Source: an uncultured Clostridia bacterium (GTDB lineage: Bacteria; Bacillota; Clostridia; Christensenellales; UBA1242). Taken from it: a stretch of 54,575 nt of DNA. A model generated the notes under the pieces. It made no database searches and had not been told where the DNA came from. It worked only from the letters and a program-made list of their open reading frames with translations. The stretch lies in contig CANQNH010000002.1 of assembly GCA_947625165.1 (NCBI GenBank), forward strand, positions 1 through 54,575. Reading direction: 5' to 3'. Made by a program: the position numbers and the translations under genes. Positions 4,569 through 47,148 of this stretch are shown here, in pieces (position 1 is the first letter of the stretch; each line of letters begins with the position of its first letter).

Positions 4569-7500
4569 ATGAAAATCGAAAAGGAATATCTGGATGAAGA
4601 CGAAATTCGTTACATCCTCAGAGCGCCTGAGAAGAATGGTTTTGATTTGGTTGTGCCATTTGAAGATGGCAAACGCTTGCTTTTTGTTCGTGATGACGAA
4701 ACGGGAGAACTTTGTGCTTTCTTCCAGAAAGGACCAAAGGAGAGATGCCTTTTTGTTAGAAAAGTCACAGACGAAGGCAAAAAAGATGGAGCAAGGATTT
4801 GGCTTTCAAATGAAAAAACTGCAAAAGCAACAAAAAACCCGTCTTACATCACCTATGCTGAACTTGTTGATGCAGCTGGAGCAGACCTCGCTGACGAGGT
4901 GAGAACACGTTTGGCACTTCCACAATTCACAAGACAAATCGGCAAGGTTCAAGAAAGACTTGATGCCTTGAAGGCAAGAAATTTGCCAAAAACAAAAAAA
5001 GAGGAGGATAAAAAAATGAGCGGAGTTGTTGATTACAACGGAAAAGGACAAGAGGTTAAAGAGCCTGTCCGTCAAAGAGTGAAGGGGGACACACCTATTC
5101 AATATAATCCTGTTGGATTTGTTGATGGTGCAAAACCAAGAGTTGACAAGCAACTTGATGCAGTTGTTGCAAAATTCTTGGAATTGAGAGCCAAAAATGG
5201 TGACAATTCAAAGAAATTGAACGAAAAACAAGTTGAGACCTTGGCAAGTCGTGCAGTTCGCGAAGTTGTTGCTGCTGCAAGGAACAGTGATGAAAAACGT
5301 GTTCTTAGTGCAAACATTTCAGTTTTGACAAAATATGCAGAAGGCAGGCTTAAGGGCGAAAAGGAAAAAACAGCACCTGCAATCAAGAAGGAAAGAGGTG
5401 TTGAAACCATTATTGGTGCAGTCAGCCATTTGCTTGAGGACAAAGATTTCTCTTTGAAATTTACTGCAAAAACTGGCAAGTTTGGCGAAACACTTTACAC
5501 CTTGGATGGCAAGGGTGAATATCGTCTTCCACTTGGAGATAAAATTGGCACACCTGACAAAAAGGCAGGAACTCGCACAGTTTCTCTTGATGACATCAAA
5601 AAGGTTGGAGAAGTTTATTTGAAACTTGGGCTTATTGATGCATATTCTGAGGCTGTTGTTGATTATATTATGAGTTCATCTTTGGCAAAGAGAAAACAGT
5701 CTTTGACAAAGGAAGAAAGAGAATATGTTGTTGGCAGAGTTAAAGAAACTTTGCAAGCCAAAACTGTCACAATGGACAATGCAAATGTTTTGAGTGAAGA
5801 TGAAAAAACAAGAGTTGAATTTGCAAGTCCAGAATGGGTTTACAGAAGAGATATTGAAAAAGTTGTGACTCAACTCACAAAGATTAACAACTATGATGAG
5901 CGTGTTATCGCAGCAAACACTCTTGCAAAAGAATTTTTGAACAAGAACAAAGATCTGAAAAAAGCAAACGGAGCAACAAGAGAGGCAGCTTTGAGACAGT
6001 GGAGAGGCTACTTTGTGAAAGAGGCTCAAAAGCAAAATCCTGTTTTCACAACCACTTTGGGAGCAATCACTCCAACACCTGAAAGGGTTGTCACCGAAGA
6101 GGAAAAAGCAAGAAACGAACAGGATGCAAGAAACATTGCTGGACATCTTGGAAACTCTGATGGCACAAGAAAGCCAAAATCTCTTGAAGAGCTTGAAAAA
6201 GAACAAAGAGAAAGAGAAGCTGCTGAAAAGGCTGCCGCTGAAGAGAGAGAAAAGAAAGAAAAAGCAGAGCGTGAGCGTGAAGCAAAAGAAAAAACAAAAA
6301 AAGACAAACGAGCAAAAACAAAAGCAACAGTGAAGAGAATTTTGAAAAAACCTCTCACTTGGATTGCTTTGGCAGCAGTCACCGCACTTGCAGCAACAGA
6401 ACTCACACTTGGACTGTGGTCAAAACCTGATCAAACAAAAGAAGCAAAACAACAAGCAAAACAACTTGCTGGTGAAACAAAGATGGAAGCAACAGTTGGG
6501 GAAGATTTTGACCTTCAAAACTTCAAAATCACTGATGCAAAGGGCAGAGAAATTGTGACATCTTACAATCAAAAATTCAGTCTTGTTGGACACTTGCGCC
6601 CAGCAAAACAGAACTATGACGAAGTTGAGATGGAAACATATTTCACAGAACTTGGTGCAAGAGCTGCTTTGAGTGTTGCTTCAAAAGCAAACCTTAAGGG
6701 TGAAGATGGAAAAATCACAGTTCCATTTGTCACAGAAAGCGGAAAGACAACACGAGCAGAATTTGCAAGTGACCTCACAAAGTTGGGATACAGTGAAGAA
6801 GAAATTTCGAAAGCCACAGAACTTTATGAAGATGCGTTCGCAAAGACATATAACGAAAACTATGATGCGAAGAACTTTGAAAAGCAACAAACTCCTCCAG
6901 ATGGCGGACAAGACGGACCAGGAGGCACACAAGGACAAGAAACAAAGATTGACTTGAAGGGTGAAACAGCAAAGGCTATTTACGAAAGTGCAATTGAAAA
7001 GTATGATCCAAACTTTGACATTGAAAATGCCATTGTTGATGGTGAAAATGTTTATGCAACCGGAACAGGCACAATGCTTGACGGAACACCTGTTGATTTG
7101 CTTTACACACTCAACATCAGCGGACTTGGAACAGAAGCTGTTGACAGCGAACAGGAACTTAAAGATGCTGTTTCTGCTTTGGATGCTCGCACAATTGGCA
7201 ACACAAGAGCCGTTGGTGCAGAGTATTACCTTGACACACAGCAAGGACATTCTTCAAAGACAATTGACAGATACAGAAATGAAGTTGACTCTGAATATTA
7301 CATCGTTTCAAGCGAATCTCCTGAAAAAGTTTCATCAAAGGGAACTCCAGGAACTGCGATTGTTGCAATGAAAGTTGATGGCGAAAATGTTGAGAAAGTT
7401 GATTGTGGCGTTGTCTACGCTCCATCAGACCTGATGAACAGGGCCGGGCTTATCGTTGTTGGTCTTCTTAAACAAGAATATGGCGAGAGATACATTCCTC

Positions 7501-7598
7501 AAACAGGTGTTGTTTACTATCAAAACAGCAATGAAGCAAATGCACAGGCACAAGCTGCAGAAGATAATAAAAACAAAAACCCAGACAGAGTGATCTAA
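4569..7598 (+). CDS. Hypothetical 1,009-aa bitopic membrane protein: ~590-aa N-terminal part, K/E-rich coil, one TM helix, ~390-aa C-terminal part
   Basis: Long ORF with strong promoter, RBS and terminator. The K/E-rich run EKEQREREAAEKAAAEEREKKEKAEREREAKEKTKKDKRAKTK is followed by the hydrophobic WIALAAVTALAATELTLGLW. I recognise no family motif. Confidence 0.85.
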   Translation: MKIEKEYLDEDEIRYILRAPEKNGFDLVVPFEDGKRLLFVRDDETGELCAFFQKGPKERCLFVRKVTDEGKKDGARIWLSNEKTAKATKNPSYITYAELVDAAGADLADEVRTRLALPQFTRQIGKVQERLDALKARNLPKTKKEEDKKMSGVVDYNGKGQEVKEPVRQRVKGDTPIQYNPVGFVDGAKPRVDKQLDAVVAKFLELRAKNGDNSKKLNEKQVETLASRAVREVVAAARNSDEKRVLSANISVLTKYAEGRLKGEKEKTAPAIKKERGVETIIGAVSHLLEDKDFSLKFTAKTGKFGETLYTLDGKGEYRLPLGDKIGTPDKKAGTRTVSLDDIKKVGEVYLKLGLIDAYSEAVVDYIMSSSLAKRKQSLTKEEREYVVGRVKETLQAKTVTMDNANVLSEDEKTRVEFASPEWVYRRDIEKVVTQLTKINNYDERVIAANTLAKEFLNKNKDLKKANGATREAALRQWRGYFVKEAQKQNPVFTTTLGAITPTPERVVTEEEKARNEQDARNIAGHLGNSDGTRKPKSLEELEKEQREREAAEKAAAEEREKKEKAEREREAKEKTKKDKRAKTKATVKRILKKPLTWIALAAVTALAATELTLGLWSKPDQTKEAKQQAKQLAGETKMEATVGEDFDLQNFKITDAKGREIVTSYNQKFSLVGHLRPAKQNYDEVEMETYFTELGARAALSVASKANLKGEDGKITVPFVTESGKTTRAEFASDLTKLGYSEEEISKATELYEDAFAKTYNENYDAKNFEKQQTPPDGGQDGPGGTQGQETKIDLKGETAKAIYESAIEKYDPNFDIENAIVDGENVYATGTGTMLDGTPVDLLYTLNISGLGTEAVDSEQELKDAVSALDARTIGNTRAVGAEYYLDTQQGHSSKTIDRYRNEVDSEYYIVSSESPEKVSSKGTPGTAIVAMKVDGENVEKVDCGVVYAPSDLMNRAGLIVVGLLKQEYGERYIPQTGVVYYQNSNEANAQAQAAEDNKNKNPDRVI

Positions 7599-10734: not shown

Positions 10735-11676
10735 TCAATCAATGATTGCAATGTGAAGTTTGCCGATTGAGATGCCATTCACAAAAAGTTCCAAGTCTCC
10801 AAAGGCTTCGGCATTAATTGTGAAGTTGTTGTGGAAAATGCCAGCCACTTTTTCCACGCTGATGCCCACAACTGAATTTATTTCAATCGGGTCGGAATTT
10901 GTGCTTGTGTATATGTGAAAGACACATTCTGTGCCAGCCTTCATTTTTATGACATTGTTTTCAATGATTGCTTCGCCGCCAATCAGTTCCACAGAAAAAG
11001 CAAGCGCAGTTTCCTCTTTTCCGGGCTCGTTTTGGTCTGTGTTGTCGCTTGGATTGTTGCCTTCTTGCTGATTGCCTGAATTGCCGCTGCTTGTGTCAGG
11101 GTTTTTCTCTTCTTCAGGCGGGTTCTCTTTATCTGGTTGTTGTTTGTCAGGCGGTGTTTCATCGTCTGGCTGTTTGCCTGTTTCCGGCTCTGTGTTTGGT
11201 GGGTTTGGATTTTCTTTATCGGGATCTGTCACATCTTCTTTTGGAGGATTTGTTTCGCTTTCTTCGTTATTGTTTTTGTCCTCCTCTTTGTTGTCTTTGT
11301 CATCGTCATTATTGTCTTGCGAAGGATTGTTGTTGTCAGTTTCTTCTTCCAAAACGGTGACAACACATTCTGCTTGCGCGGTTTGTTTGTCATAGCGTGC
11401 AACCAAAGTCACTTTTGTGCTTCCAACACTGAGCGCTTGAATGATTGTGCCTCTGATTGAAATGATTTCGGGATTTTCAACCCTAAACTCAATGTTTGCA
11501 AACGGAATTGAAACGGAATATTCAATTTTTGTGTCGGTGTCATCGCGATACATTCTGATTGAAGTTTGAGTTTCGATTGTCAATTTTTCCTCTTTGTTGC
11601 AAGCAAAAGAAAAAATTGCGAGTGCCGCAATCATAAAGACAAAAATCGGACAGATAATTTTTCTCAAATTTTTCAC
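10735..11676 (-). CDS. Putative surface (lipo)protein with a Big_2-like Ig domain and a long acidic/Pro-rich low-complexity linker
   Basis: Likely start is GTG 11676, giving MKNLRKIICPIFVFMIAALAIFSFAC (signal peptide, possible lipobox Cys). ISIRGTIIQALSVGSTKVTLVARY...AECVVTV resembles Big_2. A D/E/N/P/K-rich linker of about 110 aa follows. The ORF track extends it to 11808. Confidence 0.6.
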   Translation of the reverse strand: MKNLRKIICPIFVFMIAALAIFSFACNKEEKLTIETQTSIRMYRDDTDTKIEYSVSIPFANIEFRVENPEIISIRGTIIQALSVGSTKVTLVARYDKQTAQAECVVTVLEEETDNNNPSQDNNDDDKDNKEEDKNNNEESETNPPKEDVTDPDKENPNPPNTEPETGKQPDDETPPDKQQPDKENPPEEEKNPDTSSGNSGNQQEGNNPSDNTDQNEPGKEETALAFSVELIGGEAIIENNVIKMKAGTECVFHIYTSTNSDPIEINSVVGISVEKVAGIFHNNFTINAEAFGDLELFVNGISIGKLHIAIID

Positions 11677-11682
11677 ATGAAG

Positions 11683-11691
11683 ATTATAGCA
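11683..11691 (-). promoter_or_regulatory. Extended -10 element (TGcTATAAT) only 6 nt upstream of the GTG start
   Basis: Minus strand ttgTGcTATAATcttcatGTG. There is no good -35 and no SD between the box and the start. Confidence 0.4.
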
Positions 11692-11879
11692 CAAAGTTTG
11701 TCGAAAAAAGAAAGATTTTGAACATTGTTTCAATTTTTTGTCGAATATTTTTGTTTGCTTTGCCAAGTGACGCCACTTTGACGGCGAAAGTTGAAACAAA
11801 CTTGTCACTTTGTTTCCGAAAATTGATGCTTTGTGATATAATCAAATTTGACAAGAGATTTTGATGGTGCAAGAGAATT

Positions 11880-13169: not shown

Positions 13170-13268
13170 AAGGGCATTGTTTGTCGTTAAAAAGCGGGTG
13201 CGATGCCGGTTGTGCTATCTGCGAAATTTGTCGCATAAGATATTTAAAAATTTTTAACCAATTATTTG

Positions 13269-13297
13269 TTGACTTTTTGTGCGTTTTGTGTTATTAT
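13269..13297 (+). promoter_or_regulatory. Sigma-A type promoter of the two-gene giant-protein operon
   Basis: TTGACT 13269-13274, 17 nt, TGt + TATTAT 13292-13297. About 205 nt of leader precede the start codon. Confidence 0.55.
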
Positions 13298-13508
13298 CTT
13301 TATAGAATTTTCTTCACGCAGTTTTTGTCAGCAAGTTGATGTGAGGAAAATCCGTGAAAAAACACTTGAAAAAAACAATTTTTTGTCTTTGCAAGTGGGC
13401 TTGAATGGTGTGCAAAGGCAAAAAAGACACGATATTTGCCAAACAACAACAGAGATTTTTGCTTGAAAAGACTTTTTTGGCACAAAAATTTTGAATTTGG
13501 AGTTGTCG

Positions 13509-14444
13509 GTGACAATCAATTTAAAAAAAGTAATGCAAATTTTTATGATTTTCTTGGTCGCACTTGTGACCGGCGTTTCTGTCGGCAAAATTTATGTTGA
13601 CCACATTGAAGCAATTATGATTTCCGACAAAACTGTGGAAGATGTGAAGGCAAGTGAAGAAGATGTTTTGAAACTTGTCAACAGCGCAAAGGGCAAGACT
13701 GTGAAAAACTGCGGGCTTAAACCTGTGGAGATTTATCTTGTTGCCGAATACAATTTGTATAACGCGCCAGAATTTTATAAGATTATGACCGGCATTGTTG
13801 AAAACAGCGCTGTGAAACCACAAAATATGAAAGGCGAAAAACTGAAAAAAGATGGAAAGTTCTATTACAACAAACTTAGCCCATCTTCTGGTTTCCCTGC
13901 ACCAACACTTTGCTCGCGTGTGGAATATGAAATCGGTGCTGCAACGGTGGATGTCTATGCGACAGGCTCAATTTCGGGCTCTTCGCCGGCAAAAGACATC
14001 AAGGGCACTTTCAATGCAAATGCAAAAAAGACATACACTTTGGATGAATACAAACAAATGTTCAACACAGAGCCAACAACTGCTCTGTCCTACATCATTT
14101 CGTCAGTTTCTTGCCCGGATGAGAATTGCTCCACAATCAAGGACAACGGCAATGACACCTTCACTTTCACAATGAAATTTGATGCCACACACACAATGTA
14201 TGCAGGCTTGATTTATTCCTATGAAATTGCCTTCTCGTCAGGAATGGGACAGCCAAAATGGGTTTCGCTTGAAATGGAAGTCACTATTGACAAAGACTTC
14301 AATTTTGTTTCAATCAACTATGACGAAGTTTACAAGATGTCGTCAGTCATCGGAGATGTCACTGTTCACGATGATTTCACCGAGTTTATGTATTTCACAA
14401 ATGTTCCTTCTGTTGCAGACAGTGTTGGGGAGGTGATTGGATGA
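13509..14444 (+). CDS. Hypothetical 311-aa protein with an N-terminal signal-anchor helix; partner of the giant ORF
   Basis: GGAG sits 6 nt before GTG 13509. MTINLKKVMQIFMIFLVALVTGVSVGKIYV is followed by a polar ~280-aa body. Its stop overlaps the next start (ATGA). The ORF track begins at TTG 13491. Confidence 0.75.
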   Translation: MTINLKKVMQIFMIFLVALVTGVSVGKIYVDHIEAIMISDKTVEDVKASEEDVLKLVNSAKGKTVKNCGLKPVEIYLVAEYNLYNAPEFYKIMTGIVENSAVKPQNMKGEKLKKDGKFYYNKLSPSSGFPAPTLCSRVEYEIGAATVDVYATGSISGSSPAKDIKGTFNANAKKTYTLDEYKQMFNTEPTTALSYIISSVSCPDENCSTIKDNGNDTFTFTMKFDATHTMYAGLIYSYEIAFSSGMGQPKWVSLEMEVTIDKDFNFVSINYDEVYKMSSVIGDVTVHDDFTEFMYFTNVPSVADSVGEVIG

Positions 14445-17400
14445 TTGAGCGCGAAATCGAAAAAGCAAAAACGCTTTTCCCAAAAATGTTCAGGACATTC
14501 GCGGCGTATGTCATTATGACGCTGTTGGTTTTCTTTGGCTATGTTTTGATTTTTGGTGGCCCAAAATATGTCCTTCCAGATGAAGGCGATGCGGGCGCTG
14601 AAGAGGACAACTATTTTGGCGAGTTTGTGCAAAGTTTGACCGCCCTTGAAAACATCAAAGGAAATGATGTTAATCTTGTCCTCAAAACTGCGGACGAAAA
14701 AATTGATTTGTCTGTTCAAGGTGATTTTTGCTTTGACAGAGCAACGGGGCTGGCTCTTGATTTGGACCTTGGATATAACGGCCAGATGTTTGATGTTCAG
14801 GCAACATATCTTTCTCCAAACCTCTTTTTGACGATTGACGGAACAACCTATTTATTCGACACGTCAAAAGTTGACATCCAACTTCCGAAAACTGAAGAGG
14901 AATTTGATTTTTCGAAGATTTTGGACTTTGTCACAAACACTCTTGGAATTGACCTTGACCCATATCTTAATTCACTTGGAGAGCTTATTGGTGTTGACCT
15001 CAAAAACTTTGACCTCAATTCGTTTATGAACGTGCTCAAAATCACTCCAACGCTCAATGAGGAAACGGGTGACTATACATTCCGCATTCAACTTGGGGAA
15101 TATATTGATGCCACAATTATGTGTGACAATGCCTTTAACATCACAAATGTGTCAATGAAAGACATTCTTGTGAAGAACAATGTCATTCAGTTGAGCGTTC
15201 CGTTTGTGAGTATGAACAAAGAGGAAAACGTTGTCACCTATGACAGAACAAATGATGAAGTGGATTTGACAGGCTTGGGAATTTTTGCGGGCTATGCTCA
15301 GAACACCTTCCAAAACAACTTTGTCAATGTGAAACTGCTGGTTGATGGCGTTGAGGGTGCTCCGTATGCGGCAGATGTGAATGTTGACCTTGAAAACAAC
15401 ATCTTCAAATTTTCAACAGAATATCAAGGATTGAATGTTGTGGCAACCTATGCAAACGGAAACATCTATCTTGATGTGTTTGCCAAAGAGGGCGACAGTT
15501 CTGAGGTTGAGGGTGGTTTGAAAGTGAAAATCCGTGCCAAAGATTTTGACACTTGGAAAACAAAACTTGAAAAACTGCTTTTGACGCAAACAGGCAAGGA
15601 TTTCAAAGGGTTTTTTGAACAATGGAAACAAGATTTTGCAAGCAAACATCCAGATGTTGACCTTGAAAATATGACTGCAAAAGACATTGTGATGAAAATT
15701 CTTGCGGGATTTTTTGGAAATACAGAGAGTTTTGACACCTATCTTCCACAAAGCGCGACTTTGGAAGATGAAAAATATTCTCTTGGCTGGAACTGTGGTG
15801 CAAATCTGACCTTTGAGGCGAAAACAGATGAACAAGAAAACAAAAATCTGACAAAGATTGCGTTTGCGTATGGTGATGTGACGGCATCTGCTGATTTTGA
15901 GATTGTTGATGCGGGATTGAGCGTTGAGGATGGGGAGTTCTATGAACTTTCAAATCTCCTTCCTGTTTTGGATGTTGTTGACGGCATTTTGGCTGAAAAG
16001 CAGTTGGGCGGGGACATTGCACTGAATGTTGAGGGGCAAGAGATTTCTGGCAATTTTGTTTTGAATTTTGAAAATGACATCTTGGCGAAAGTGGAACTTG
16101 AAAATGGCATTCTTTCACGCAAAGTTGGCGGCGAAATTCAAAAGCAAAAAGTGGTGATTGTTCTCAGTGGCCGTGATGTTGTTGTGACGATTGGTGACAT
16201 TTCTGTGAAAGGCAGTTTGGATGCCATTGAGGAATATGAGGCAAAGATCGTGCGCTTGCTTGGACTTCAAAAAGTGGAAGAAACAAATCCTCCACAAGAT
16301 GAGCAGGAAAAAGACTTGGCACACAAGATTTCTGATGTGATACAAAAAGTTTGCGACATTTTGCAAAAATTCTCTTTGGGCGAGGAAAGAGATGAAGAAA
16401 ACAATTTGACCGCTTTGGCTGTGGTGAAATATCTCTCAACTCCACAAATCTTTGGCAAAGTTTCAATGGACGAAGATGGAAGAATTTGCGTTGCAGTTGG
16501 TGATGCAAGCCAAGAAAATTCTGGCGAAAATGTGGCAGGCGGGGAAAAGAATGGTGCTGTTTTGAAGTTTGGTGCAAACTTTGACGAGATTGAATATTCC
16601 GTTGCTGGCGAGGACCTTTCGGATGTTCTGGAAAAAGCGCAAAATGTGAAGGATTATTTCCTTGCTGGACAATATGCTTTCAAATTTGATGCAGAATTTG
16701 ACGGTTTCACAGTTTCCGCAAAAGTGGAAATTGAAAGACCTATCACACCAGTGCAGAGCGATGAGGCAAATCCTGAAACTATGGCAACTGGCACAAAGGA
16801 AGCGGAAGAAAGAACAACAGACGGCTTGACAGTTGTTGTCAGTGACATATATATAGGAAAGACGGATGCCGCAGGGTTGAATGGCGAAGGAATGACACCA
16901 AATGTCAATCTCACACTCAGACTTCAAGATGGCGTGCTGTTTGTGGACTATGGCGAAAACAAAATGAAATTTGTCGGAACATCTGCTGACGGCATTTTGA
17001 ACAAAATTTTGGAAATTCTGAAAGCCAATTTTGCCGAGCAGCTTGATGCTGAGCAAACTGTTGCTGATGCGGACGAAGGACAAGACGGTGAAAAGCCTGC
17101 TTTGTCTGACCAGCAAAAAGCACAACTGAAAGCCAAGTTTGTTGAAGTTTTGACGACCTTGTTTGGTGAGGATTTGACAACCAAAACCACTTCAGAACTT
17201 TTGAATATGCTGAGAGTTTCATTGAGCGGAACAACAACTGACGATATGACCTTTGATGTTGACTTCAAGAATGTTGTTGACGGCGTTGAAAAAGGTGTTT
17301 CTGGAAAAGCACAGGTTGTGTTTGAGGACAAAAACATCAAAAACATTCAACTTGCACTTGACGATTTCAAAGGGCTGAAACTCAATCTTGACGTTTTGCC

Positions 17401-20400
17401 ATTTGCACTTTCAAAAGATGTGAAAACAGAGGAATATTATGACCTTCTTGCAAAACAGACTGGCAAACTGACATTTGAATATAACTATCAAGTTGAAACT
17501 GCTGTGGAAGAGGAAGTCAAGATTGTCCCTGAAAAACTGACCCTTGTTGCAGATGTTGAAGTGGATCTTTGCGACCAGATGTATCTGAGAATTTTCTTCT
17601 CAGATGTGCTTGGCGAGGAAGTTGAAATTTTGATAAACAACAACATTGTTGGTGCCAGAGTTGGAGAAATTTCTCTTGAAACCGATTTGAACAATGCAAA
17701 AGAATTGTTTGAATATGTCAAAGATTTGTTTAATTTGACCATCAAAGGTGCTGAAAACCTGGGCGGAGATGGACTGAAAGATGTTGATTTTGATGCTCTG
17801 TTTGGGAAGCTGGAAACAATTGATTTTGCCAAGTTGTTTGAGCAAATCAAAAACTTTGACTTTGCGGGCAATCCATTCGACTTTGATGGAGATGGGAAGA
17901 ACGATTTGACAATTTCCGGCGATGCAATTTCATTCAACTTTGTTCAAGACATCAGCAAAAAGGCTCAGGAAAAAGAACAAGAACCTTTGAGTGAGAAAAA
18001 GGTTGCTGGCGAAGCCGCTTCTGCTTCTGACGAAGAAAAAGACGCAAAGAATTTGTCGTTTAGCCTTGCTTTAAGCACAAATGTTGAGCAAGAATTTGAG
18101 AAAGTTGAACATCTTGCCAATGCCAAAGATTTGAAAGCTGACCTGCCAAAGATTAAGAACTTGATTGACTATTTCAACCAAAAAGTGTTTGAATTTAAGT
18201 TTGGCATCAACTATAACGGACTTGATGTTTCAGGCACGCTGAAATATCTCAAAGGCAGCGAACCGTCAAAAGATGAACTTGAAATTGTGCTGAACAACCT
18301 GTTTGAAAATGGCAGTGTCAACAGGCCGGAAGGCGGCGGCAAAGATTTGGTTGTCAGACTGCACAGCGACATCCTTTATGTTGGCTATGGCAATATGAAA
18401 GTGCAAGTGCTTGTCGAGAAGAAAGAGGGCGCAAATACCTTTGAAAACTTGAAAACAACTCTTGAAAAACTTTTGAATGACGGCTATGGTGTTCGCCTGC
18501 AATTTGGTGTGTTTGAGAAGTTCTTGAATATGCTTGAGACTTTCAGTTTGAAAGACTATTTCACCAAGACCAAAATTGACATCCGCCGAAGTGAATATGA
18601 ATATGCAATCGAAGGCAGTGAAAGCGGGGCGAAAGGCGACATATTCACAATTGGTATATACGAACAATTTGAAGTTATGAAGCCGACAAAACTGTTTGAT
18701 GTTGAAATAAGGTTTGACCAAAATGGACTTTTGAAATCGGCAAATCTTTTGCTTCCAGAGGTTGTGAAGGTTGAGGGTGGCACAGAAGAAGTTCCTGTTG
18801 TGAAAGCAACGGTTGAATTTATGCTTGTTGAAGAATCCACAATCCCTGAATTTGACCCAAGTGAGTATGACACAACAAACTATAAGTCCAACATTTTGGA
18901 AGGCTTGTTTGACAGTTTGAGATACGATGAGGGCGTTTATGCCTTCTCAAGTGATTTGGCAGTGCGCTATGGCATCAACGATTTCTATGGCGACCTCACT
19001 GGACTGCTTGTGCCATATGAGACCGTTGTTGACGACAAACCTGTCACAAAACTTCGCCCAGCGTTGTCGCTGTACACCTCTTCGCTTGGACTTGACACAT
19101 TCATCTATTTGATTGACGATGTGCTCTACATCGACATTCAAGGGCTGCAAATCAAAGCGCCAGCGAGTGTTGACAGCATAAATGAAATCTTGAATTTTGT
19201 CAAACAAGAACTTGGCATTGATGTCAACAGTATGTTGAATAAGGAAGAGGAAACAACTGACCAAGCCACAGATGGAACACCAGAAGAAACGGGCGAAGCA
19301 TCGACAGTGGAAATCATTTCAACCGACCCACAAACAGAGGTTGATTTGCAAGACGCCTTGTCACAAGAGGGCGCGCTTGATGCACTTGCCGAAACCTTTA
19401 AGGCTCTCATTCCTGCACTTGACAACATCTACGCACAGTGGATAAAATTGGAAGAGATGGTTGCAAGCGGCGATGGTGCATCAGTTGAGTTAATGAAAAA
19501 TAACAATGTTTACTATGGTATTCAAGTTAAGTTTAAGGACAGCCGAGCAGCCGAAGGCGAGACGAAGGAAGATATTTTGGAATATCAAGAAGGCTCATAC
19601 TTCTCCGATATTATCCTGCAACTCTATATTCAGGACTATATCGCCGAGAATGCAGAGAGCGGAATGCTTATTCCAACACAACTTGTTGTTGGTGCAAACA
19701 TAAACGATCCAAACACAAAGGCACACAATGCAACATATTACAAAGACCACTTGCTGAAAGCAGAGAACGGCACATCAGAGACGGTTATGGAGTTTGACAT
19801 AACCACAGGCTTGAACTTTGCGGTTTATCTGACCAACATTGAAGTTGGGGTTGGCACGCATAACACAGAAAGATTTGTTGGCGGAAGGGCTGATTTGAAA
19901 CAACAAGAAGTTGCACAGACCTATCAAGTTGCCACAAAGGATGGTGGCACAACCGCTTTGCAAGATTTCAATGACTATCACGATGTTTTGCAGTTTGCCG
20001 CCACGGCATATTCTTGGGCAACGGGCTTCCACTATGACCTCAATCTTGCCGGAACGATTGAAGGCGAGAAGCTGAATGAGGATGAAACAGTGACATCCAC
20101 ACAAACAGCAATAAGCGGCGGCATCAAAGTTTCGGTTGAGCAAGAAAAAATTGTGGAAGAAGCAGATGAAACAGGAAAGATAACGGAAAAGACAGACGGC
20201 TTCTCGCTTGACGGCAAGAGACTGAATGTTCAGGGCACAGATCTTGACATAACTCAAAGCAAAAAGGGACAGAGTGACGAAGGTTGGACACAAACAATGA
20301 GGCATCTCATCAATTTGTTCTATTCCACAGATCAAGACGGGTTGTTTGTCACCTATACTCACGATGGTCCAAAAAATCAAAATATTGCTGCTGGAAACAA

Positions 20401-22063
20401 AATTCGTGCAAGGATAAACAATGTTCATATGAGCGATTTGATTTCGTTCATAGTTGGCTTTATCGGTCTTGACCTTGACCCATCGTCATTGAAGGGGTGG
20501 GAACTTCAAAAGAGCACAACCGATTTCAGATTTGTTCAAGCACTTATGGGCAAAACGGAAGTCAATGCAGATGGCACAATCTCCAAGGTTGACACAATTT
20601 TGAGCGAGATAACGGCCTACACCAAACTTCTCAAGAGCATTGTTTTTGAAAAAACAGAAGAAACCGAAGATGGCCACAACTTGAAACTGACAATCACTGT
20701 TGACACGGGCTATCTTGACGAGATGGAAAAGGCTGATGGCGAGGCGGAAGAGCAAGAGCCAAAGCCACACACTGAAAAACTTGGAACAATCAGCCTGAAT
20801 GTCAATATGACGAAAGACGGATTTGAGAATGTTGGAACTGAAGAGGCTCCAATTCAAAAGCAGAAGTATAAGGCTCAACTCAATCAAATTCTTGTTGAAA
20901 ACCTTCAAATTTCCGGAATGACAATAAACTTCACAGTCAATGTTAAAGAATATGTTTTGAATGGTGCTCACTATGAAACAGCCACAAGAAAAGTCCTTGA
21001 CGCAAATGGCAAACCTGTGCAAAACGAAGATGGAAGTGAGAAGACGGAAGAGTATGAATATATTGTCGGCACTGACAAAAACTTCACTTACGACATCAAT
21101 CAGCAACATATGGTTCTTGGCAGCCTGCCACAATTCCTCAACATCGCAGTTGACACCGTGAATGCAAAAGAATTTTTCTATCAGGGAACGATTTCAGCTG
21201 AGCTGCTAAATATTATTGTCAATTTTGAAACAAGTCTTTATATTAAAGTCGAGAAAGAAGAGGGTTCAAAACCAAATATTTATGTGTTGGCCCAAATCAC
21301 ACCTACACAAAAAGGTGGACTTTTTAAAGACTCGTTGCTGGAAGGGAATGGTAAGGTGAGAAGGTCAATTTTGGAACTTAAAAATGGTGTTATAACGGTA
21401 AATAATGAATATACCTATAATGATAGTTTGGATTGGGGGAGAGAAAAACACAGTTATAACAATGTTTCATATAGATTGGAAGAACTTTCTGATTTTGAAA
21501 AATTGAAAGATTTGATATACAAAGTGACAATGCTCTCAAGCGGCGTATCCGAGACTTTGAATTTGGTGCTTGATAGAATAACTTTCCCAACGCCAACCAT
21601 TGAAAAGGTCATCACCGACTTTACATCAGTTGAACAGGATGGAAAGAATATTTACACAATGCAGATTGATGGAAATCATCTTATTGGACAAAATGATGCA
21701 AAAACATTTGGCTTGCAGTTGATTGCTGGTGACAAGATGAAATGCGAAGTCACAAATAAAGAACTTGTTGACAAATACAACACAGGTTTGGATGAAAAGA
21801 AGAAAGTTAAGTCCTACATCCGAGAACACGAATTTATTGAAGAAGTGAAAATTGATGAGGCAAATCCTTTTGACATTGTTGGGATAATTCAATTGTCGAT
21901 GAAATTGGCTTCAATATCACAAGACTTCACATTCACTCCAATCACCGCAAAAGATGTGACACTTGGGGCTGACCCAAACAACAAGGATGTTGGCAGAACT
22001 GTTCACAGCAACCATAAGTATAGGCTTGACTATTTGAACAGCATCGGAACAATCCTTGCTTGA
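14441..22063 (+). CDS. Hypothetical giant (2,540-aa) acidic, internally repetitive protein with a single N-terminal TM anchor
   Basis: Uninterrupted 7.6-kb ORF. The N-terminus KMFRTFAAYVIMTLLVFFGYVLIFGG is a TM helix. It is D/E/N-rich with recurring modules, has no LPXTG or choline/SLH-like motifs, and is followed by a strong terminator. Confidence 0.9.
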   Translation: MIEREIEKAKTLFPKMFRTFAAYVIMTLLVFFGYVLIFGGPKYVLPDEGDAGAEEDNYFGEFVQSLTALENIKGNDVNLVLKTADEKIDLSVQGDFCFDRATGLALDLDLGYNGQMFDVQATYLSPNLFLTIDGTTYLFDTSKVDIQLPKTEEEFDFSKILDFVTNTLGIDLDPYLNSLGELIGVDLKNFDLNSFMNVLKITPTLNEETGDYTFRIQLGEYIDATIMCDNAFNITNVSMKDILVKNNVIQLSVPFVSMNKEENVVTYDRTNDEVDLTGLGIFAGYAQNTFQNNFVNVKLLVDGVEGAPYAADVNVDLENNIFKFSTEYQGLNVVATYANGNIYLDVFAKEGDSSEVEGGLKVKIRAKDFDTWKTKLEKLLLTQTGKDFKGFFEQWKQDFASKHPDVDLENMTAKDIVMKILAGFFGNTESFDTYLPQSATLEDEKYSLGWNCGANLTFEAKTDEQENKNLTKIAFAYGDVTASADFEIVDAGLSVEDGEFYELSNLLPVLDVVDGILAEKQLGGDIALNVEGQEISGNFVLNFENDILAKVELENGILSRKVGGEIQKQKVVIVLSGRDVVVTIGDISVKGSLDAIEEYEAKIVRLLGLQKVEETNPPQDEQEKDLAHKISDVIQKVCDILQKFSLGEERDEENNLTALAVVKYLSTPQIFGKVSMDEDGRICVAVGDASQENSGENVAGGEKNGAVLKFGANFDEIEYSVAGEDLSDVLEKAQNVKDYFLAGQYAFKFDAEFDGFTVSAKVEIERPITPVQSDEANPETMATGTKEAEERTTDGLTVVVSDIYIGKTDAAGLNGEGMTPNVNLTLRLQDGVLFVDYGENKMKFVGTSADGILNKILEILKANFAEQLDAEQTVADADEGQDGEKPALSDQQKAQLKAKFVEVLTTLFGEDLTTKTTSELLNMLRVSLSGTTTDDMTFDVDFKNVVDGVEKGVSGKAQVVFEDKNIKNIQLALDDFKGLKLNLDVLPFALSKDVKTEEYYDLLAKQTGKLTFEYNYQVETAVEEEVKIVPEKLTLVADVEVDLCDQMYLRIFFSDVLGEEVEILINNNIVGARVGEISLETDLNNAKELFEYVKDLFNLTIKGAENLGGDGLKDVDFDALFGKLETIDFAKLFEQIKNFDFAGNPFDFDGDGKNDLTISGDAISFNFVQDISKKAQEKEQEPLSEKKVAGEAASASDEEKDAKNLSFSLALSTNVEQEFEKVEHLANAKDLKADLPKIKNLIDYFNQKVFEFKFGINYNGLDVSGTLKYLKGSEPSKDELEIVLNNLFENGSVNRPEGGGKDLVVRLHSDILYVGYGNMKVQVLVEKKEGANTFENLKTTLEKLLNDGYGVRLQFGVFEKFLNMLETFSLKDYFTKTKIDIRRSEYEYAIEGSESGAKGDIFTIGIYEQFEVMKPTKLFDVEIRFDQNGLLKSANLLLPEVVKVEGGTEEVPVVKATVEFMLVEESTIPEFDPSEYDTTNYKSNILEGLFDSLRYDEGVYAFSSDLAVRYGINDFYGDLTGLLVPYETVVDDKPVTKLRPALSLYTSSLGLDTFIYLIDDVLYIDIQGLQIKAPASVDSINEILNFVKQELGIDVNSMLNKEEETTDQATDGTPEETGEASTVEIISTDPQTEVDLQDALSQEGALDALAETFKALIPALDNIYAQWIKLEEMVASGDGASVELMKNNNVYYGIQVKFKDSRAAEGETKEDILEYQEGSYFSDIILQLYIQDYIAENAESGMLIPTQLVVGANINDPNTKAHNATYYKDHLLKAENGTSETVMEFDITTGLNFAVYLTNIEVGVGTHNTERFVGGRADLKQQEVAQTYQVATKDGGTTALQDFNDYHDVLQFAATAYSWATGFHYDLNLAGTIEGEKLNEDETVTSTQTAISGGIKVSVEQEKIVEEADETGKITEKTDGFSLDGKRLNVQGTDLDITQSKKGQSDEGWTQTMRHLINLFYSTDQDGLFVTYTHDGPKNQNIAAGNKIRARINNVHMSDLISFIVGFIGLDLDPSSLKGWELQKSTTDFRFVQALMGKTEVNADGTISKVDTILSEITAYTKLLKSIVFEKTEETEDGHNLKLTITVDTGYLDEMEKADGEAEEQEPKPHTEKLGTISLNVNMTKDGFENVGTEEAPIQKQKYKAQLNQILVENLQISGMTINFTVNVKEYVLNGAHYETATRKVLDANGKPVQNEDGSEKTEEYEYIVGTDKNFTYDINQQHMVLGSLPQFLNIAVDTVNAKEFFYQGTISAELLNIIVNFETSLYIKVEKEEGSKPNIYVLAQITPTQKGGLFKDSLLEGNGKVRRSILELKNGVITVNNEYTYNDSLDWGREKHSYNNVSYRLEELSDFEKLKDLIYKVTMLSSGVSETLNLVLDRITFPTPTIEKVITDFTSVEQDGKNIYTMQIDGNHLIGQNDAKTFGLQLIAGDKMKCEVTNKELVDKYNTGLDEKKKVKSYIREHEFIEEVKIDEANPFDIVGIIQLSMKLASISQDFTFTPITAKDVTLGADPNNKDVGRTVHSNHKYRLDYLNSIGTILA

Positions 22064-22066
22064 CGC

Positions 22067-22099
22067 AAAAAAAAGAAGGAAATCAATCCTTCTTTTTTT
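22067..22099 (+). terminator. Intrinsic terminator after the giant ORF
   Basis: AAAAAAAGAAGGA-aatcaa-TCCTTCTTTTTTT: hairpin plus T-run. The A-run on the other side makes it potentially bidirectional. Confidence 0.8.
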
Positions 22100-43746: not shown

Positions 43747-46700
43747 TTATCTTCCTCTTCCATTAGATGCAGTGCGAGTGTTGTTTTGTTGCTGTTGTTG
43801 CTGTTGCTCTGTGTTTCTTGCACGGGCTCTTCTTGCCCTTCTCAATCTCGCCATTTCGGTGTTTCTTCTCGCCCTTGCCTCTTCGGCACGTCTTTGTGCA
43901 CGTTCTTGTTGCTCGGCACGCTGTCTTTCAGCCCTTGCTCTCACAGCTTCTTGCTGCTGTCGTAACAACGCTTCAAGGTCTTGATTTTGCACGACTTGTT
44001 GCAGATTTGCACGCTTGTTTTGCTCTTTCAATTGTGAGTTTTCATTTTCCACCGCCGTTCTTTGTGCTTCATAGAATGCAATCTGCTCTGGTGTTAAATC
44101 TTTGTTTTCTTTCAAAACAACATTAAGTTGTTTGCCGTAAATCGAGTTTTCATCAATAGTGTGCTGATTTTGAGCCTTGACAAGATTTCTTTTTGCCCTG
44201 ACATAGCCACGTTTTTTGTCAAACTTTTCAAGTTCTTCTCGCAATTTTTCAGGGTCGGAAGCATATCTTTCCTCAACTGCACTGCGTGCACGCTCATAGC
44301 CCGCCACTTTGGATGAATATTTGCCAATTGTTCTTGTGGCTTTTGCCGATTTCACTCTTGACAGACTTTCAAGCCGTTCTTCAGTTCGCTCCATCTTTGA
44401 CAAATCAATTTTGTTGAGAAGTTTTTTGATTTGGTTGAGTGGTTGAATGACTTGATATGTGAATGCTGAAAATGTGAAGCCGAAAAATGCAACATATGCA
44501 AATGGCACAAACATTGAAACAACAAGCGACAAAATTCCAAGAATAAGCAAACCTTTGAACAGATTTTCGTTTGGATTTAGGATTTCATATTTGTGGTCAC
44601 CCATCTTCTTTGGTTTTGGAAGTGGCTCCGGAATTGGTTCTGGTTCAGGATCAGGAACGGGTTCAGGATCAGGCACTGGGTCTGGTGGAGGAGGTGGCAC
44701 AGGATCAGGAATTGGATCTGGTGGAGGAGGTGGCACAGGATCACCATTATGTTCAATAATTCTTTGAGTGTCGATTTCTCGTTCAAGTTCTGCTGCTTTG
44801 TTGAATGACACCAAATTTTCAACCTTTTGGTGAGATATGTCATGAACATTGTATTCCTTCCCACCAATTTTTCTCTTACGAGGATTTGGGGCATTGTTTT
44901 TCTTTGCCAAAGCATCTGCTTCTTCAAATTCTTTTTCAAGGCAGGCTCTTATGTCGGCAAAAAATTGTTGATTTGCATCAAATGGAGCGTTTATCATCAA
45001 GTCAACATTGCCGGAGCTGTTTTTGCAGGTCACACAAAGGCGCTGTTCGCCATTTGTTTCTTGCAAACTGCACGCCCTTATTTCATAAAACTTCGGTGCA
45101 CGAATGGAGTCATTGCGTGTTTGAACATAAAGATAGTGCTTGCCATCTCTTTCCAATATGCTTGGATATTGAGGCTCAGTTTCGCCTTCAAGCATCAGTG
45201 GGAAAGAGTGAAGAATGGTGTTGTTTGCAACTTCAAGATGAATGGCCTGTGTTCTGTTTTTTGGGCTTCTTTCGTTTTGCTTTGTGCGTTCAAGCAAGAT
45301 GTTTTCAATCATAAGAGTTGAATAAATCGGGTCTTGCTCAGGCGACAAAATGCAGTTTCCTTGATGATTTCGGTCAAAAAATCTTTGACTGACAATGACA
45401 TTTCGCGGTGAGGAAGAAGTGTTTTGAGCTTCATGGTCTTTGCTGTCAAGAATTTTTGATTGGATTGCTGACACAATCAACGAAAAGTTTTTGTTTTCTG
45501 CGTGAACATCTGCAACTTCAAGTTCGTTGTTTTTTGTGATGCCTGCACGCGCAATCTCGCAGACATAGCCTCCGTCAACACTTGTGAGTTCGCCAAAATC
45601 AATTTGAGGGTTGTCCGCTCTCAAACTGTCAACAAATTCTTGCGTCATAAAGAGTTGAAGTCCACCAGTTTTGTTGTCGCTGATGGAAACCACTGTTTTT
45701 CCACTCTCACGGACATCAATCAACGGTGCACTTGCCTTTGAGGTGACTCCAAGCATTTGATATCTGTCTTCAACATCTTTTTGAACAATTTTGATGTTGG
45801 TGTATATCAAATCGGTTTTTCCACTTGTTTTGCCATATTCAAAATCCACTCCTTTTCTTGAACGGGAGCGTCTCAAAGTTTCAGTGACAACCTCTCTTTC
45901 TCTTGTTTCGTTTGGTGGAGTTGGAGTGGCTGGTTGTTGTGGCGGGGTTTGTTCGCGCGGTGGATTTTGTGGGGGAACTTGGGCATCTTCGCGTGGCGGA
46001 GTTGGATTGTTTTGGCGCGGTGGGTTTTGTGGAGGAGGGGTTGGGCTATCTTCGCGTGGTGAAGTTTGATTAGATGGTTGCTCGACTGCTGGTTGGCTTG
46101 GCTGCTGTGCAGCACTTCGTGCCTCCAAACTGTTTGCCTCTTCAAGTGCGGCACCAAGAGAGATTTCATTGTTGACATACCTTTGCACCAATCTCATCCT
46201 TGGGTCAAAATATTTTGCATCAGAGCCGACTGTCAACTTTCCATCTCTTTCCACATGTGCCTGACCGCTTTCGTGCATGAAGAAACGAACTCTTGCCTCG
46301 TCATCATCGCGGATTTTTTGTTGGGTCTTGAAATTGTCAAACCTCTCTTTAAAAATGTTTGCGTAGGCATAGGTGAGAAGAGTGGATTGAGAGTTTTTGT
46401 CTTTTTTATAGGACTTTACGGCTTTTTTAATCTTGTCCTCAAGATTTTTTTGCGATGGTGAAGAAGATGTATCTTCGTTCTCTTGTGCACGTCGGGCTTT
46501 GCCAATATCGGCGGCACGTTTTTTTGCTTGTTCAAGAGAATATTTTCCCGAAACTGCATAGTCGTGGGCAAGATTTAGTTTGTCCAAAAAGTGTGGGACA
46601 GAGTGCCCTGAGACAACCATATCGTTTTCAAAACGAACTTCTCCACTTTCGTTTAAGTAAAAAGCAACAATTGCGATGTCATTATCTTTGAAGCCGTGCT

Positions 46701-47088
46701 CAGCTTTAAAATTTTTGAAATCTTCCTCAAAAACTTCGGCATATGCTCGTGAAATGGCACTGTTATAGCCTTCTGGCAATTCTTTAAAATCAAGGACGCT
46801 GCTGACCAAGAGATGTCTCGGCGCAAAGTGTGCCGAGTTGTCAATCTCTGTGAGTTTTCCGTCTTTGTCAACGTGGGCTATGCCAAATTCGTGCAAATAA
46901 AAGCGAACCTTTGCTTCGTCAACATCGGCAATTTTCTGTTCTTGTTTGAAGCGTTCAAAATCACGTTCAAAAACCTGAGAATAAGTTTCAATATCATCCA
47001 CGGTGTGTTTGTATTTTTCGTCTTTTTCTTTGAACATTTCAACAAAAACACCAATTTTTCTTTTGATTTCTTCCTCTTTATTTGGCAT
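43747..47088 (-). CDS. Hypothetical 1,113-aa protein: 3 tandem ~100-aa repeats, Pro-rich spacer, central domain, PPPPP/DP spacer, hydrophobic hairpin, coiled coil, Arg/Gln-rich tail
   Basis: AGGAG sits 7 nt before ATG 47088, behind a perfect promoter. Repeats are visible by eye (see findings). Hydrophobic stretch GLLILGILSLVVSMFVPFAYVAFFGFTFSAFTY. The tail is ...RARAERQRAEQQERAQRRAEEARARR...QQQQQQQ. Confidence 0.85.
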   Translation of the reverse strand: MPNKEEEIKRKIGVFVEMFKEKDEKYKHTVDDIETYSQVFERDFERFKQEQKIADVDEAKVRFYLHEFGIAHVDKDGKLTEIDNSAHFAPRHLLVSSVLDFKELPEGYNSAISRAYAEVFEEDFKNFKAEHGFKDNDIAIVAFYLNESGEVRFENDMVVSGHSVPHFLDKLNLAHDYAVSGKYSLEQAKKRAADIGKARRAQENEDTSSSPSQKNLEDKIKKAVKSYKKDKNSQSTLLTYAYANIFKERFDNFKTQQKIRDDDEARVRFFMHESGQAHVERDGKLTVGSDAKYFDPRMRLVQRYVNNEISLGAALEEANSLEARSAAQQPSQPAVEQPSNQTSPREDSPTPPPQNPPRQNNPTPPREDAQVPPQNPPREQTPPQQPATPTPPNETREREVVTETLRRSRSRKGVDFEYGKTSGKTDLIYTNIKIVQKDVEDRYQMLGVTSKASAPLIDVRESGKTVVSISDNKTGGLQLFMTQEFVDSLRADNPQIDFGELTSVDGGYVCEIARAGITKNNELEVADVHAENKNFSLIVSAIQSKILDSKDHEAQNTSSSPRNVIVSQRFFDRNHQGNCILSPEQDPIYSTLMIENILLERTKQNERSPKNRTQAIHLEVANNTILHSFPLMLEGETEPQYPSILERDGKHYLYVQTRNDSIRAPKFYEIRACSLQETNGEQRLCVTCKNSSGNVDLMINAPFDANQQFFADIRACLEKEFEEADALAKKNNAPNPRKRKIGGKEYNVHDISHQKVENLVSFNKAAELEREIDTQRIIEHNGDPVPPPPPDPIPDPVPPPPPDPVPDPEPVPDPEPEPIPEPLPKPKKMGDHKYEILNPNENLFKGLLILGILSLVVSMFVPFAYVAFFGFTFSAFTYQVIQPLNQIKKLLNKIDLSKMERTEERLESLSRVKSAKATRTIGKYSSKVAGYERARSAVEERYASDPEKLREELEKFDKKRGYVRAKRNLVKAQNQHTIDENSIYGKQLNVVLKENKDLTPEQIAFYEAQRTAVENENSQLKEQNKRANLQQVVQNQDLEALLRQQQEAVRARAERQRAEQQERAQRRAEEARARRNTEMARLRRARRARARNTEQQQQQQQNNTRTASNGRGR
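44681..44743. repeat. 27-nt perfect direct repeat with 36-nt period, encoding the DPVPPPPPDPIP spacer
   Basis: tctggtggaggaggtggcacaggatca occurs at 44681-44707 and again at 44717-44743. Confidence 0.9.
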
Positions 47089-47119
47089 AAGGTTTCTCCT
47101 TGACTTCTTTGTATATTTG

Positions 47120-47148
47120 ATTATACCATAAAACAAGGCGTTTGTCAA
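47120..47148 (-). promoter_or_regulatory. Perfect consensus sigma-A promoter with extended -10
   Basis: Minus strand TTGACA (47148-47143), 17 nt, TGgTATAAT (-10 at 47125-47120). Confidence 0.7.

Follow-up and report, generated by a model that had tools for sequence, protein, structure and literature searches.

Giant repetitive surface proteins and adhesins of Gram-positive bacteria, such as Ebh of Staphylococcus aureus, are presumably the natural comparison group for the long protein described here; the general kind, a giant surface protein built of tandem modules, is known. A further point of reference is the LolA superfamily, listed in InterPro as 'prokaryotic lipoproteins and lipoprotein localization factors'. 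The known LolA, LolB, LprG and RseB proteins are single-domain (RseB has two domains) and are either soluble or lipoproteins, and to our knowledge no tandem array of LolA-like domains has been described. In spore-forming bacteria with a single membrane, the LolA-like proteins GerS and SsdC have non-lipid roles, with functions in spore shape and germination and a capacity for strand-swap oligomers (bioRxiv 10.1101/2025.01.13.632879). Here we describe a pair of overlapping genes on the + strand of contig CANQNH010000002.1 (GenBank assembly GCA_947625165.1), from an uncultured Clostridia bacterium of the Christensenellales, UBA1242; the window refers to the whole stretch analysed, 54,575 nucleotides (nt). 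The first gene encodes a small protein of 311 amino acids (aa) and the second a giant protein of 2,540 aa. At roughly even odds (a probability of about 0.5), the giant is an N-anchored, extracellular, acidic modular filament, made with a small membrane partner, that contacts other cells or particles.

Repeat modules of the giant protein and their family

The original prediction, made from the sequence without database searches, had aligned by eye at least five copies of a module in the giant protein. Self-BLASTP of the giant gave no off-diagonal match, which suggests that the repeats are old and diverged. An alignment of 14 homologues (A1) was cut into 160-aa tiles and the profiles of non-overlapping tiles were compared with hhalign. 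A probability of 80% or more was reached by at least 40 of these pairs (top 98.4%), and the high-scoring pairs lay at offsets that were multiples of ~240 aa; with reversed profiles, none of 406 pairs reached 80% (maximum 57%, the remainder at or below 10%). Offsets of ~480 aa scored best, which suggests an older super-repeat of two modules. Residues 700-960 served as the seed of a hidden Markov model (HMM) of the module, which detected five copies in the window protein at the first pass and eight after iteration, each of ~190-250 aa. The repeats are thus statistically supported by both profile comparison and the iterated HMM, in a larger number than had been seen by eye, and every one of the motifs listed by eye falls in the same HMM columns. 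The consensus of the strand motif is LYVTIGGLKIKF and that of the helix motif ELIEKILAFVESNLG. The modules of the window protein are at most 21% identical among themselves, and the module was not found in other open reading frames (ORFs) of the window. The features of the giant protein are as follows.

14495..14563, + strand: N-terminal transmembrane anchor, residues ~19-41 (hydrophobic segment at ~17-40 by hydropathy), preceded by a basic stub
14579..15121, + strand: module 1, aa 47-227 (iterated HMM E 3.9e-18)
15203..15775, + strand: module 2, aa 255-445 (iterated HMM E 6.5e-28)
15878..16447, + strand: module 3, aa 480-669 (iterated HMM E 1.6e-24)
16553..17317, + strand: module 4, aa 705-959, with an acidic insert inside (iterated HMM E 2.3e-33)
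17399..17926, + strand: module 5, aa 987-1162 (iterated HMM E 2.7e-16)
18065..18655, + strand: module 6, aa 1209-1405, modelled singly (iterated HMM E 3.8e-32)
18821..19555, + strand: module 7, aa 1461-1705, the beginning of the most conserved core, with many invariant residues (E 5.9e-18)
19910..20695, + strand: module 8, aa 1824-2085 (iterated HMM E 4.4e-28)
20696..22060, + strand: C-terminal conserved region, aa 2086-2540, conserved in homologues and by sequence not detectably a module

The giant is rich in D, E and N, as had been noted (E 9.2%, D 8.1%, N 6.3%; net charge -202). Hydropathy also bore out the basic stretch and single hydrophobic helix with which both products had been said to start; in the small protein the hydrophobic segment covers residues ~5-30. 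In the anchor of the giant, Y23, F31, F32 and Y34 are invariant and the motif KMFRTF...VFFGYVQIFG is common to the giant homologues. Neither N-terminus contains a Cys or a lipobox. No LPXTG motif was found in 16 giant homologues, none is visible on reading the translation of the window protein, and the window protein has no second hydrophobic segment near its C-terminus; a sortase-anchored protein was rejected on these grounds. An S-layer protein anchored by S-layer homology (SLH) domains was likewise rejected, there being no SLH Pfam match in the window protein or 17 homologues. The earlier observation that lipobox, LPXTG and other wall anchors are missing is consistent with these results.

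The most conserved part of the giant is its C-terminal ~1,080 aa. The C-terminal 455 aa and the insert at 1706-1823 were considered as diverged modules and rejected, since neither shows profile similarity to the module; in an AlphaFold2 (AF2) model the C-terminal region has a secondary-structure pattern similar to that of the module despite the lack of a profile match. Searches of Pfam, NCBIfam and PHROGs with the small and giant proteins gave sub-threshold noise only (including DUF4320, E 0.029 over the transmembrane segment, and CheR_N), and the profiles of the C-terminal core and of the small protein gave nothing significant against PDB sequences. No confident match to an adhesin, S-layer, AsmA/TamB or RHS family was obtained, and the original prediction stood up to this check as it did to those on the internal repeats and on the neighbouring small ORF. 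The statement that the giant has no recognisable domains therefore holds for the sequence level (Pfam, NCBIfam, PHROGs and PDB), but the structure models discussed below point weakly to a LolA-like half-barrel.

An exhaustive search with the module HMM over 1.84 billion representatives gave 619 matches at E <= 1e-3, of which 459 were at E <= 1e-10 and 257 at E <= 1e-30. Judged by these profile matches, the family is not unique to the window genome and spans about 619 sequence clusters. The best 150 of the 619 matches range from 524 to 6,215 aa and contain 3-20 module stretches each; 142 of these 150 are new proteins. All 142 are acidic and 132 have an N-terminal transmembrane-like segment; the window-type anchor motif is present in only 22, the C-terminal core in 61, and a match to LPxT[GAN] near the C-terminus in only two. 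Listeria-Bacteroides repeats (Flg_new, E 1.9e-16) lie beyond the core in three of the 17 close homologues, and other subfamilies include members with Flg_new (E 3.7e-18) and BspA-type leucine-rich repeats (LRR_5). Both kinds of domain are typical of extracellular surface proteins, and their distal position in relatives indicates that the C-terminal end lies outside the cell. The same arrangement suggests that the C-terminal end is the interacting end.

A second large subfamily (P0189, P0196, P0198, P0199, P0205 and P0213) differs in its conserved N-terminal anchor, MKKLFK..YLLIT..TAAGVVF, and ends in extended arrays of Listeria-Bacteroides repeats. Metagenome contigs scanned with P0199 and A8 for the gene neighbourhood of the other subfamilies, and for a small partner in it, gave nothing.

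Conservation of the gene pair and its expression signals

A word-indexed search gave 32 homologues of the small protein (292-326 aa, 50% mean column identity) and 13 of the giant (1,478-3,528 aa, 23-80% identity). The hydrophobic segment of the small protein follows basic residues, and its membrane helix contains an invariant G22xxxG26, followed by KIYV. A named source was available for only one small-protein homologue, a 'hypothetical protein' of Ca. Caccovivens, and six further database members that were looked up carried no name. That the small protein might be a free-standing copy of the module was rejected, as hhalign gave a probability of at most 18% against every giant tile.

The gene order TRAM methyltransferase, small gene, giant gene and opposite-strand metG is kept in L001-L007, L043 and L044 (the last without metG). 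In a scan of one genome per species 35 loci were recovered, of which 34 could be evaluated, and in 33 of the 34 a giant ORF starts -50 to +7 nt from the stop codon of the small gene. These 33 giant ORFs are 1,495-3,024 aa long or cut by a contig end, and the module is present in all of them (1-12 copies each, some of the ORFs being contig-cut). On recounting, the genes overlap in 27 of the 33 loci, by 4 nt in 18, 1 nt in seven and 10 nt in two. The small ORF also lies directly 5' of the giant on all other contigs examined, usually overlapping it, and the co-occurrence on which the proposed pairing depended was thereby found. All 35 loci come from uncultured gut metagenome-assembled genomes (MAGs) labelled Clostridia, Christensenella, Catabacter, Caccovivens or 'Lachnospiraceae'. 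The sole exception among the evaluable loci, L021 (9995-13052), has an intact small gene followed by an 88-codon stub of the giant (basic stretch and transmembrane helix) and then metG, reflecting either a true loss of ~2,000 codons or a collapsed assembly.

The number of modules tracks protein length in the relatives (5-13 copies). In the shortest giants (~1,500 aa) the first ~650 aa are joined to the counterpart of window residues 1461-2540; they lack the middle, which suggests that the middle modules are expansions. In long homologues (P0005, P0010 and P0011) blocks of several modules are 89-100% identical, which indicates that growth by recent internal duplication continues. In P0005 (L043, 4001-14587), residues 635-987 are repeated at 1360-1716. 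Identity to the closest relative is 97% for MetG and 94% for HisS, compared with 80% for the giant and 65% for the small protein; at greater distances the values are about 78%, 67%, 29% and 42%, respectively. The pair therefore evolves much faster than the housekeeping genes. An artefactual ORF was rejected, since the frame is intact across species with giant proteins only 26-30% identical. On the contig of the most divergent homologue (P0013; L044, 9089-10597), DarT- and Macro-domain genes, which we take to be a DarT/DarG-type pair, and an integrase fragment replace metG downstream.

The ORF listing gives two ORFs on the + strand, 13491..14444 and 14441..22063, the first of which is taken to start at GTG 13509, behind GGAG. 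The features of the transcription unit are as follows.

13236..13297, + strand: conserved promoter block, comprising an AT-rich element, TTGACT (13269-13274), a 17-nt spacer, TG and TATTAT (13292-13297)
13298..13508, + strand: 5' leader of ~210 nt, with GGAG at 13499-13502 ahead of the start codon
13509..14444, + strand: small partner gene, 311 aa, a single membrane-spanning segment (residues ~5-30)
14427..14444, + strand: coupling junction, GGGGAGG at 14427-14433 and ATG (14441) overlapping TGA (14442-14444)
14441..22063, + strand: giant gene, 2,540 aa, net charge -202
22068..22099, + strand: intrinsic terminator, 13-pair stem, 6-nt loop and T-run

Most of these signals had been read correctly from the sequence. 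The promoter proposed at 13269-13297 (TTGACT-17-TGnTATTAT) has a consensus score of 10/12 with the TG, ranks second on the + strand of the 9-kb region, and lies in a block of ~60 nt that is almost invariant in five species, the small proteins of which are only 41-65% identical. The start-site string AATTTGGAGTTGTCnGTGACA is kept in the same five species, in agreement with the start at GTG 13509. The ATGA overlap at 14441-14444 is present, with its upstream GGGGAGG, and the hairpin and T-run closing the operon were also found. A leader had been placed at ~205 nt; one of about that length does exist, but it is neither conserved nor unusually structured. Among the relatives it varies from 40 to 330 nt and, unlike the promoter block, has no conserved sequence; it has no match in Rfam and no riboswitch-like element, and it folds no better than shuffled sequences (z = -0.73). 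Directly 5' of the -35 element, the AT-rich block 13236-13268 is near-invariant in the window, L001, L010, L012 and L013 (consensus ATATTTAAAAATATTTAACTA) and includes the near-palindrome ATATTT-AA-AAATAT; it could be an UP element or an operator. The GC content of the region is not unusual. The neighbouring genes are housekeeping genes, with a TRAM/U5 RNA methyltransferase upstream and metG, hisS, a UvrD-like helicase and gyrA downstream.

Predicted fold and alternative explanations

Two AF2 models were compared. The model of residues 1461-2540 (17 sequences) has a mean predicted local distance difference test (pLDDT) score of 61, with sheet regions at 75-87, and contains repeated units of one helix, a long antiparallel strand meander and several helices, separated by disordered acidic linkers. 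The model of a single module (residues 1200-1480; 54 paralogous and orthologous rows) has a mean pLDDT of 69, with core blocks at 71-90, and its ~200 aa are ordered as a helix, six strands, three helices and four strands, which we take to be the order in LolA. In the strands of the module, hydrophobic and polar residues alternate. Foldseek gave no match to PDB structures at E <= 1e-3 with either model. The matches of highest probability were to RseB, LprG, SAOUHSC_02783 and LolA3 (0.7-0.85) for the 1,080-aa tile, for which the mean pLDDT of 61 applies, and to LolA (8t5j, 7tpm, 8t5t and 2w7q at 0.98-0.99; 4mxt at 0.91) and RseB (0.90) for the module. The LolA and RseB matches of the module have E-values of 3e-3 to 1.5e-2, target-normalised template modelling (TM) scores of 0.33-0.37 and a root-mean-square deviation (rmsd) of ~9 Å. 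Sliding clamps gave lower E-values in places, but with a probability of ~0.2 and a TM score of 0.1. TamB, VPS13 and ATG2 were not among the top 50 matches of either model, and nothing was found for the module among viral structures. The module profile gave no significant match to PDB sequences (a weak S-layer match, E 0.036, covers ~50 residues), and no match to LolA-clan families (Pfam LolA, LolB, LppX_LprAFG, MucB_RseB and related) was found in the window protein (Pfam and NCBIfam, E <= 1) or in the 17 homologues (Pfam, E <= 0.01). The LolA-like half-barrel, an antiparallel beta-barrel that is not closed and is plugged by helices, is the leading putative fold of the module, and the models are suggestive only.

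In the reading given at the outset, one transcript would yield a small single-pass membrane protein and an N-anchored giant membrane protein, the two being made in fixed proportion. Beyond residue ~41 the giant would lie outside the cell, where an acidic chain of at least eight alpha/beta modules of ~190-250 residues would lead to the conserved end region of ~455 residues. The whole would form a long filament or stalk on the cell surface, with its root in the membrane, where the small protein would probably join it, and would reach through the wall to other cells or particles. Its working end would be the conserved C-terminal core, with added binding domains in relatives. The invariant residues inside both membrane helices, together with the translational coupling, suggest that the helices of the small and giant proteins pack together. 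The original prediction of an envelope-surface fibre or bridge with a small partner gains from the conserved anchor, the distal extracellular-type domains of homologues, the variable number of modules and the fast evolution; the function as a fibre or bridge is still something we infer.

Several points weigh against this reading. The probable N-in/C-out topology has the positive-inside rule as its one basis, the presumed partnership of the small and giant proteins is drawn from the gene arrangement, and the filament shape would follow from models of moderate confidence (mean pLDDT 61 and 69). A contact function is likewise presumed from the sequence, and the window protein has no recognisable adhesin or binding domain, such domains being present in only some relatives. 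The pair also occupies a fixed housekeeping locus and is near-universal in the clade, which a structural envelope role would fit equally well.

The likeness to LolA raises the question of whether the modules handle lipids. In a hydrophobic-cargo relay, half-barrels similar to those of LolA and LprG would use hydrophobic pockets to take up lipids or lipidated molecules, from the gut lumen or from partner cells, and pass them towards the membrane. Such a relay would offset the missing lipid synthesis of the lineage and would be the equivalent, in a cell with one membrane, of bridge-like lipid transporters or of Mycoplasma P116. LolA-superfamily proteins have the top Foldseek probability for two independent AF2 models, and the order of helices and strands and the alternation of residues in the strands agree with such a fold. 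Lipid biosynthesis and standard transporters are missing from UBA1242 genomes (PMC12306168), and P116 shows that lipid-dependent bacteria can have dedicated surface lipid extractors (PMC10023570). All the Foldseek E-values exceed 1e-3, however, at TM scores of 0.33-0.37 and an rmsd of ~9 Å; no family member matches a LolA-clan Pfam family, and GerS and SsdC themselves have non-lipid roles (bioRxiv 10.1101/2025.01.13.632879). A module number that varies from 5 to 20 would be expected of a spacer more than of a conduit with a fixed span, a lipid carrier would not usually have a net charge of -202 and the hydrophobic cavity is putative; the relay is considered unlikely. Its specific form, in which a lipid-binding LolA-like chain and the small partner would extract lipids from neighbouring cells and hand them from module to module to the cell's own membrane, is distinctly unlikely. 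LolA-like modules might instead serve for interactions between proteins, as those of SsdC and GerS do, in a scaffold of the envelope or the spore. The near-universal presence of the pair, once per locus and syntenic with housekeeping genes, agrees with a scaffold, as do the spore shape, germination and strand-swap properties of LolA-like proteins in spore formers and the unexpected retention of sporulation genes in UBA1242 (PMC12306168). The conserved promoter is nevertheless of the vegetative sigma-70/sigma-A type and not of a sporulation-sigma type, fast evolution and a variable module number are typical of exposed surface proteins, relatives carry adhesin-type distal domains, and one MAG (L021) has apparently lost nearly the whole giant gene. 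We regard a scaffold as decidedly improbable.

An open hydrophobic beta-groove of the AsmA/TamB/YhdP type, anchored by an N-terminal helix, would account for the N-terminal transmembrane anchor, the large size and the long antiparallel strand meanders of the AF2 models. It is disfavoured and very improbable, given that no homologue matches AsmA, DUF490 or Chorein_N in Pfam and that TamB, VPS13 and ATG2 are missing from the top 50 Foldseek matches; each module moreover has three or four helices, with acidic linkers between modules, and the Clostridia host gives no evidence of an outer membrane. A polymorphic toxin or an RHS or contact-dependent-inhibition effector, with the small protein as its immunity or helper protein, is disfavoured still more and extremely improbable. 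A giant, probably extracellular protein with an adjacent small gene is what such a system would contain, but no RHS/YD, toxin or immunity domains were found (Pfam and NCBIfam), and conservation peaks in the C-terminal ~1,080 aa, where such a system would be variable. The small gene is moreover upstream, membrane-anchored and itself conserved, and the gene downstream is metG.

Host setting and comparison with known systems

Ca. Caccovivens belongs to the GTDB order Christensenellales, family UBA1242 (PMC8035907). UBA1242 genomes are smaller than 1 Mbp and lack amino acid, nucleotide and lipid synthesis and standard transporters but keep sporulation genes, and an obligate partner-dependent lifestyle via 'hypothetical membrane-bound proteins' has been proposed (PMC12306168). 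If the window genome is also below 1 Mbp, the 7.6-kb giant gene takes up ~1% of it. Its retention in nearly every relative, the strong-looking conserved promoter and the pairing with a small protein make the giant a prime candidate for a partner-cell interface. Neither Pfam nor NCBIfam has a model for the module family (~619 clusters), and describing it would give an annotation to hundreds of the largest gut-metagenome genes. Should the LolA-like fold and lipid binding both prove true, the modules would offer a new route for hydrophobic cargo outside a single-membrane cell, and a true relay would represent an extracellular lipid-relay machine not known before in single-membrane bacteria.

The window contains two further large ORFs without any family match. 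The first (1,009 aa; 4569-7598, + strand) follows comEC, holA and a 197-aa ORF, lacks a strong hydrophobic segment and matches nothing in Pfam or PHROGs. At the corresponding place relatives have ORFs of 998, 745 and 847 aa, and its identity to the closest relative is only 55%, against 97% for MetG. The second (1,133 aa; 43747-47148, - strand) lies beside secA; it has a single hydrophobic segment, near residue 860-880, gave no match in Pfam at E <= 1e-5 and contains no copy of the module. A 357-aa acidic protein (10735-11808, - strand; net charge -26) has an N-terminal hydrophobic segment ending in ...IFSFAC and is possibly a lipoprotein. It has no family match, is 53% identical to the closest relative and was detected by similarity in L001, L012 and L022 and not in the other relatives compared.

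Among the known systems, AsmA, TamB and YhdP resemble the giant in their N-terminal helix anchor, great length, beta-rich character and possible spanning of the envelope. They differ in having a continuous groove, compared with the discrete, helix-containing modules and linkers of the giant, and here there is no sign of an outer membrane; AsmA, AsmA_2, DUF490/TamB and Chorein_N domains are found in neither the window protein nor its homologues. With P116 of Mycoplasma pneumoniae there is an analogy of need only, in that a bacterium with a reduced genome, one membrane and a dependence on lipids has a dedicated large surface protein; P116 is a homodimer of ~116 kDa with its own fold and not a tandem-module giant (PMC10023570), and it was absent from the Foldseek matches of both models.

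The likeness to LolA, LolB, LprG and RseB lies in the module size of ~190-250 aa and in the predicted N-terminal helix, six antiparallel strands, helical segment and further strands. It is set against the absence of a sequence-profile match, a TM score of ~0.35 and E > 1e-3, and against 8-20 tandem copies on one membrane-anchored chain. No description was found, in the libraries and literature searched, of the module, of its possible LolA-like character in 8-20 tandem copies, of the uncleaved anchor at the N-terminus or of the obligatory overlapping small partner.

Giant Gram-positive adhesins share with this protein its great length, acidic character, tandem modules, copy number changed by recent duplication and fast evolution. 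The general features of a tandem-repeat surface protein were found, in the form of homologous modules, a varying copy number and Flg_new or LRR_5 domains in relatives; the distal Flg_new and LRR_5 domains of some members of the module family extend the likeness to BspA-type leucine-rich-repeat and Listeria-Bacteroides-repeat proteins. The pair differs from these adhesins in a module that is not Ig-like, FIVAR or another catalogued repeat, in an anchor that appears to be an uncleaved N-terminal transmembrane helix in place of a signal peptide with an LPXTG, SLH or choline-binding anchor, and in the obligatory, overlapping gene for its small partner.

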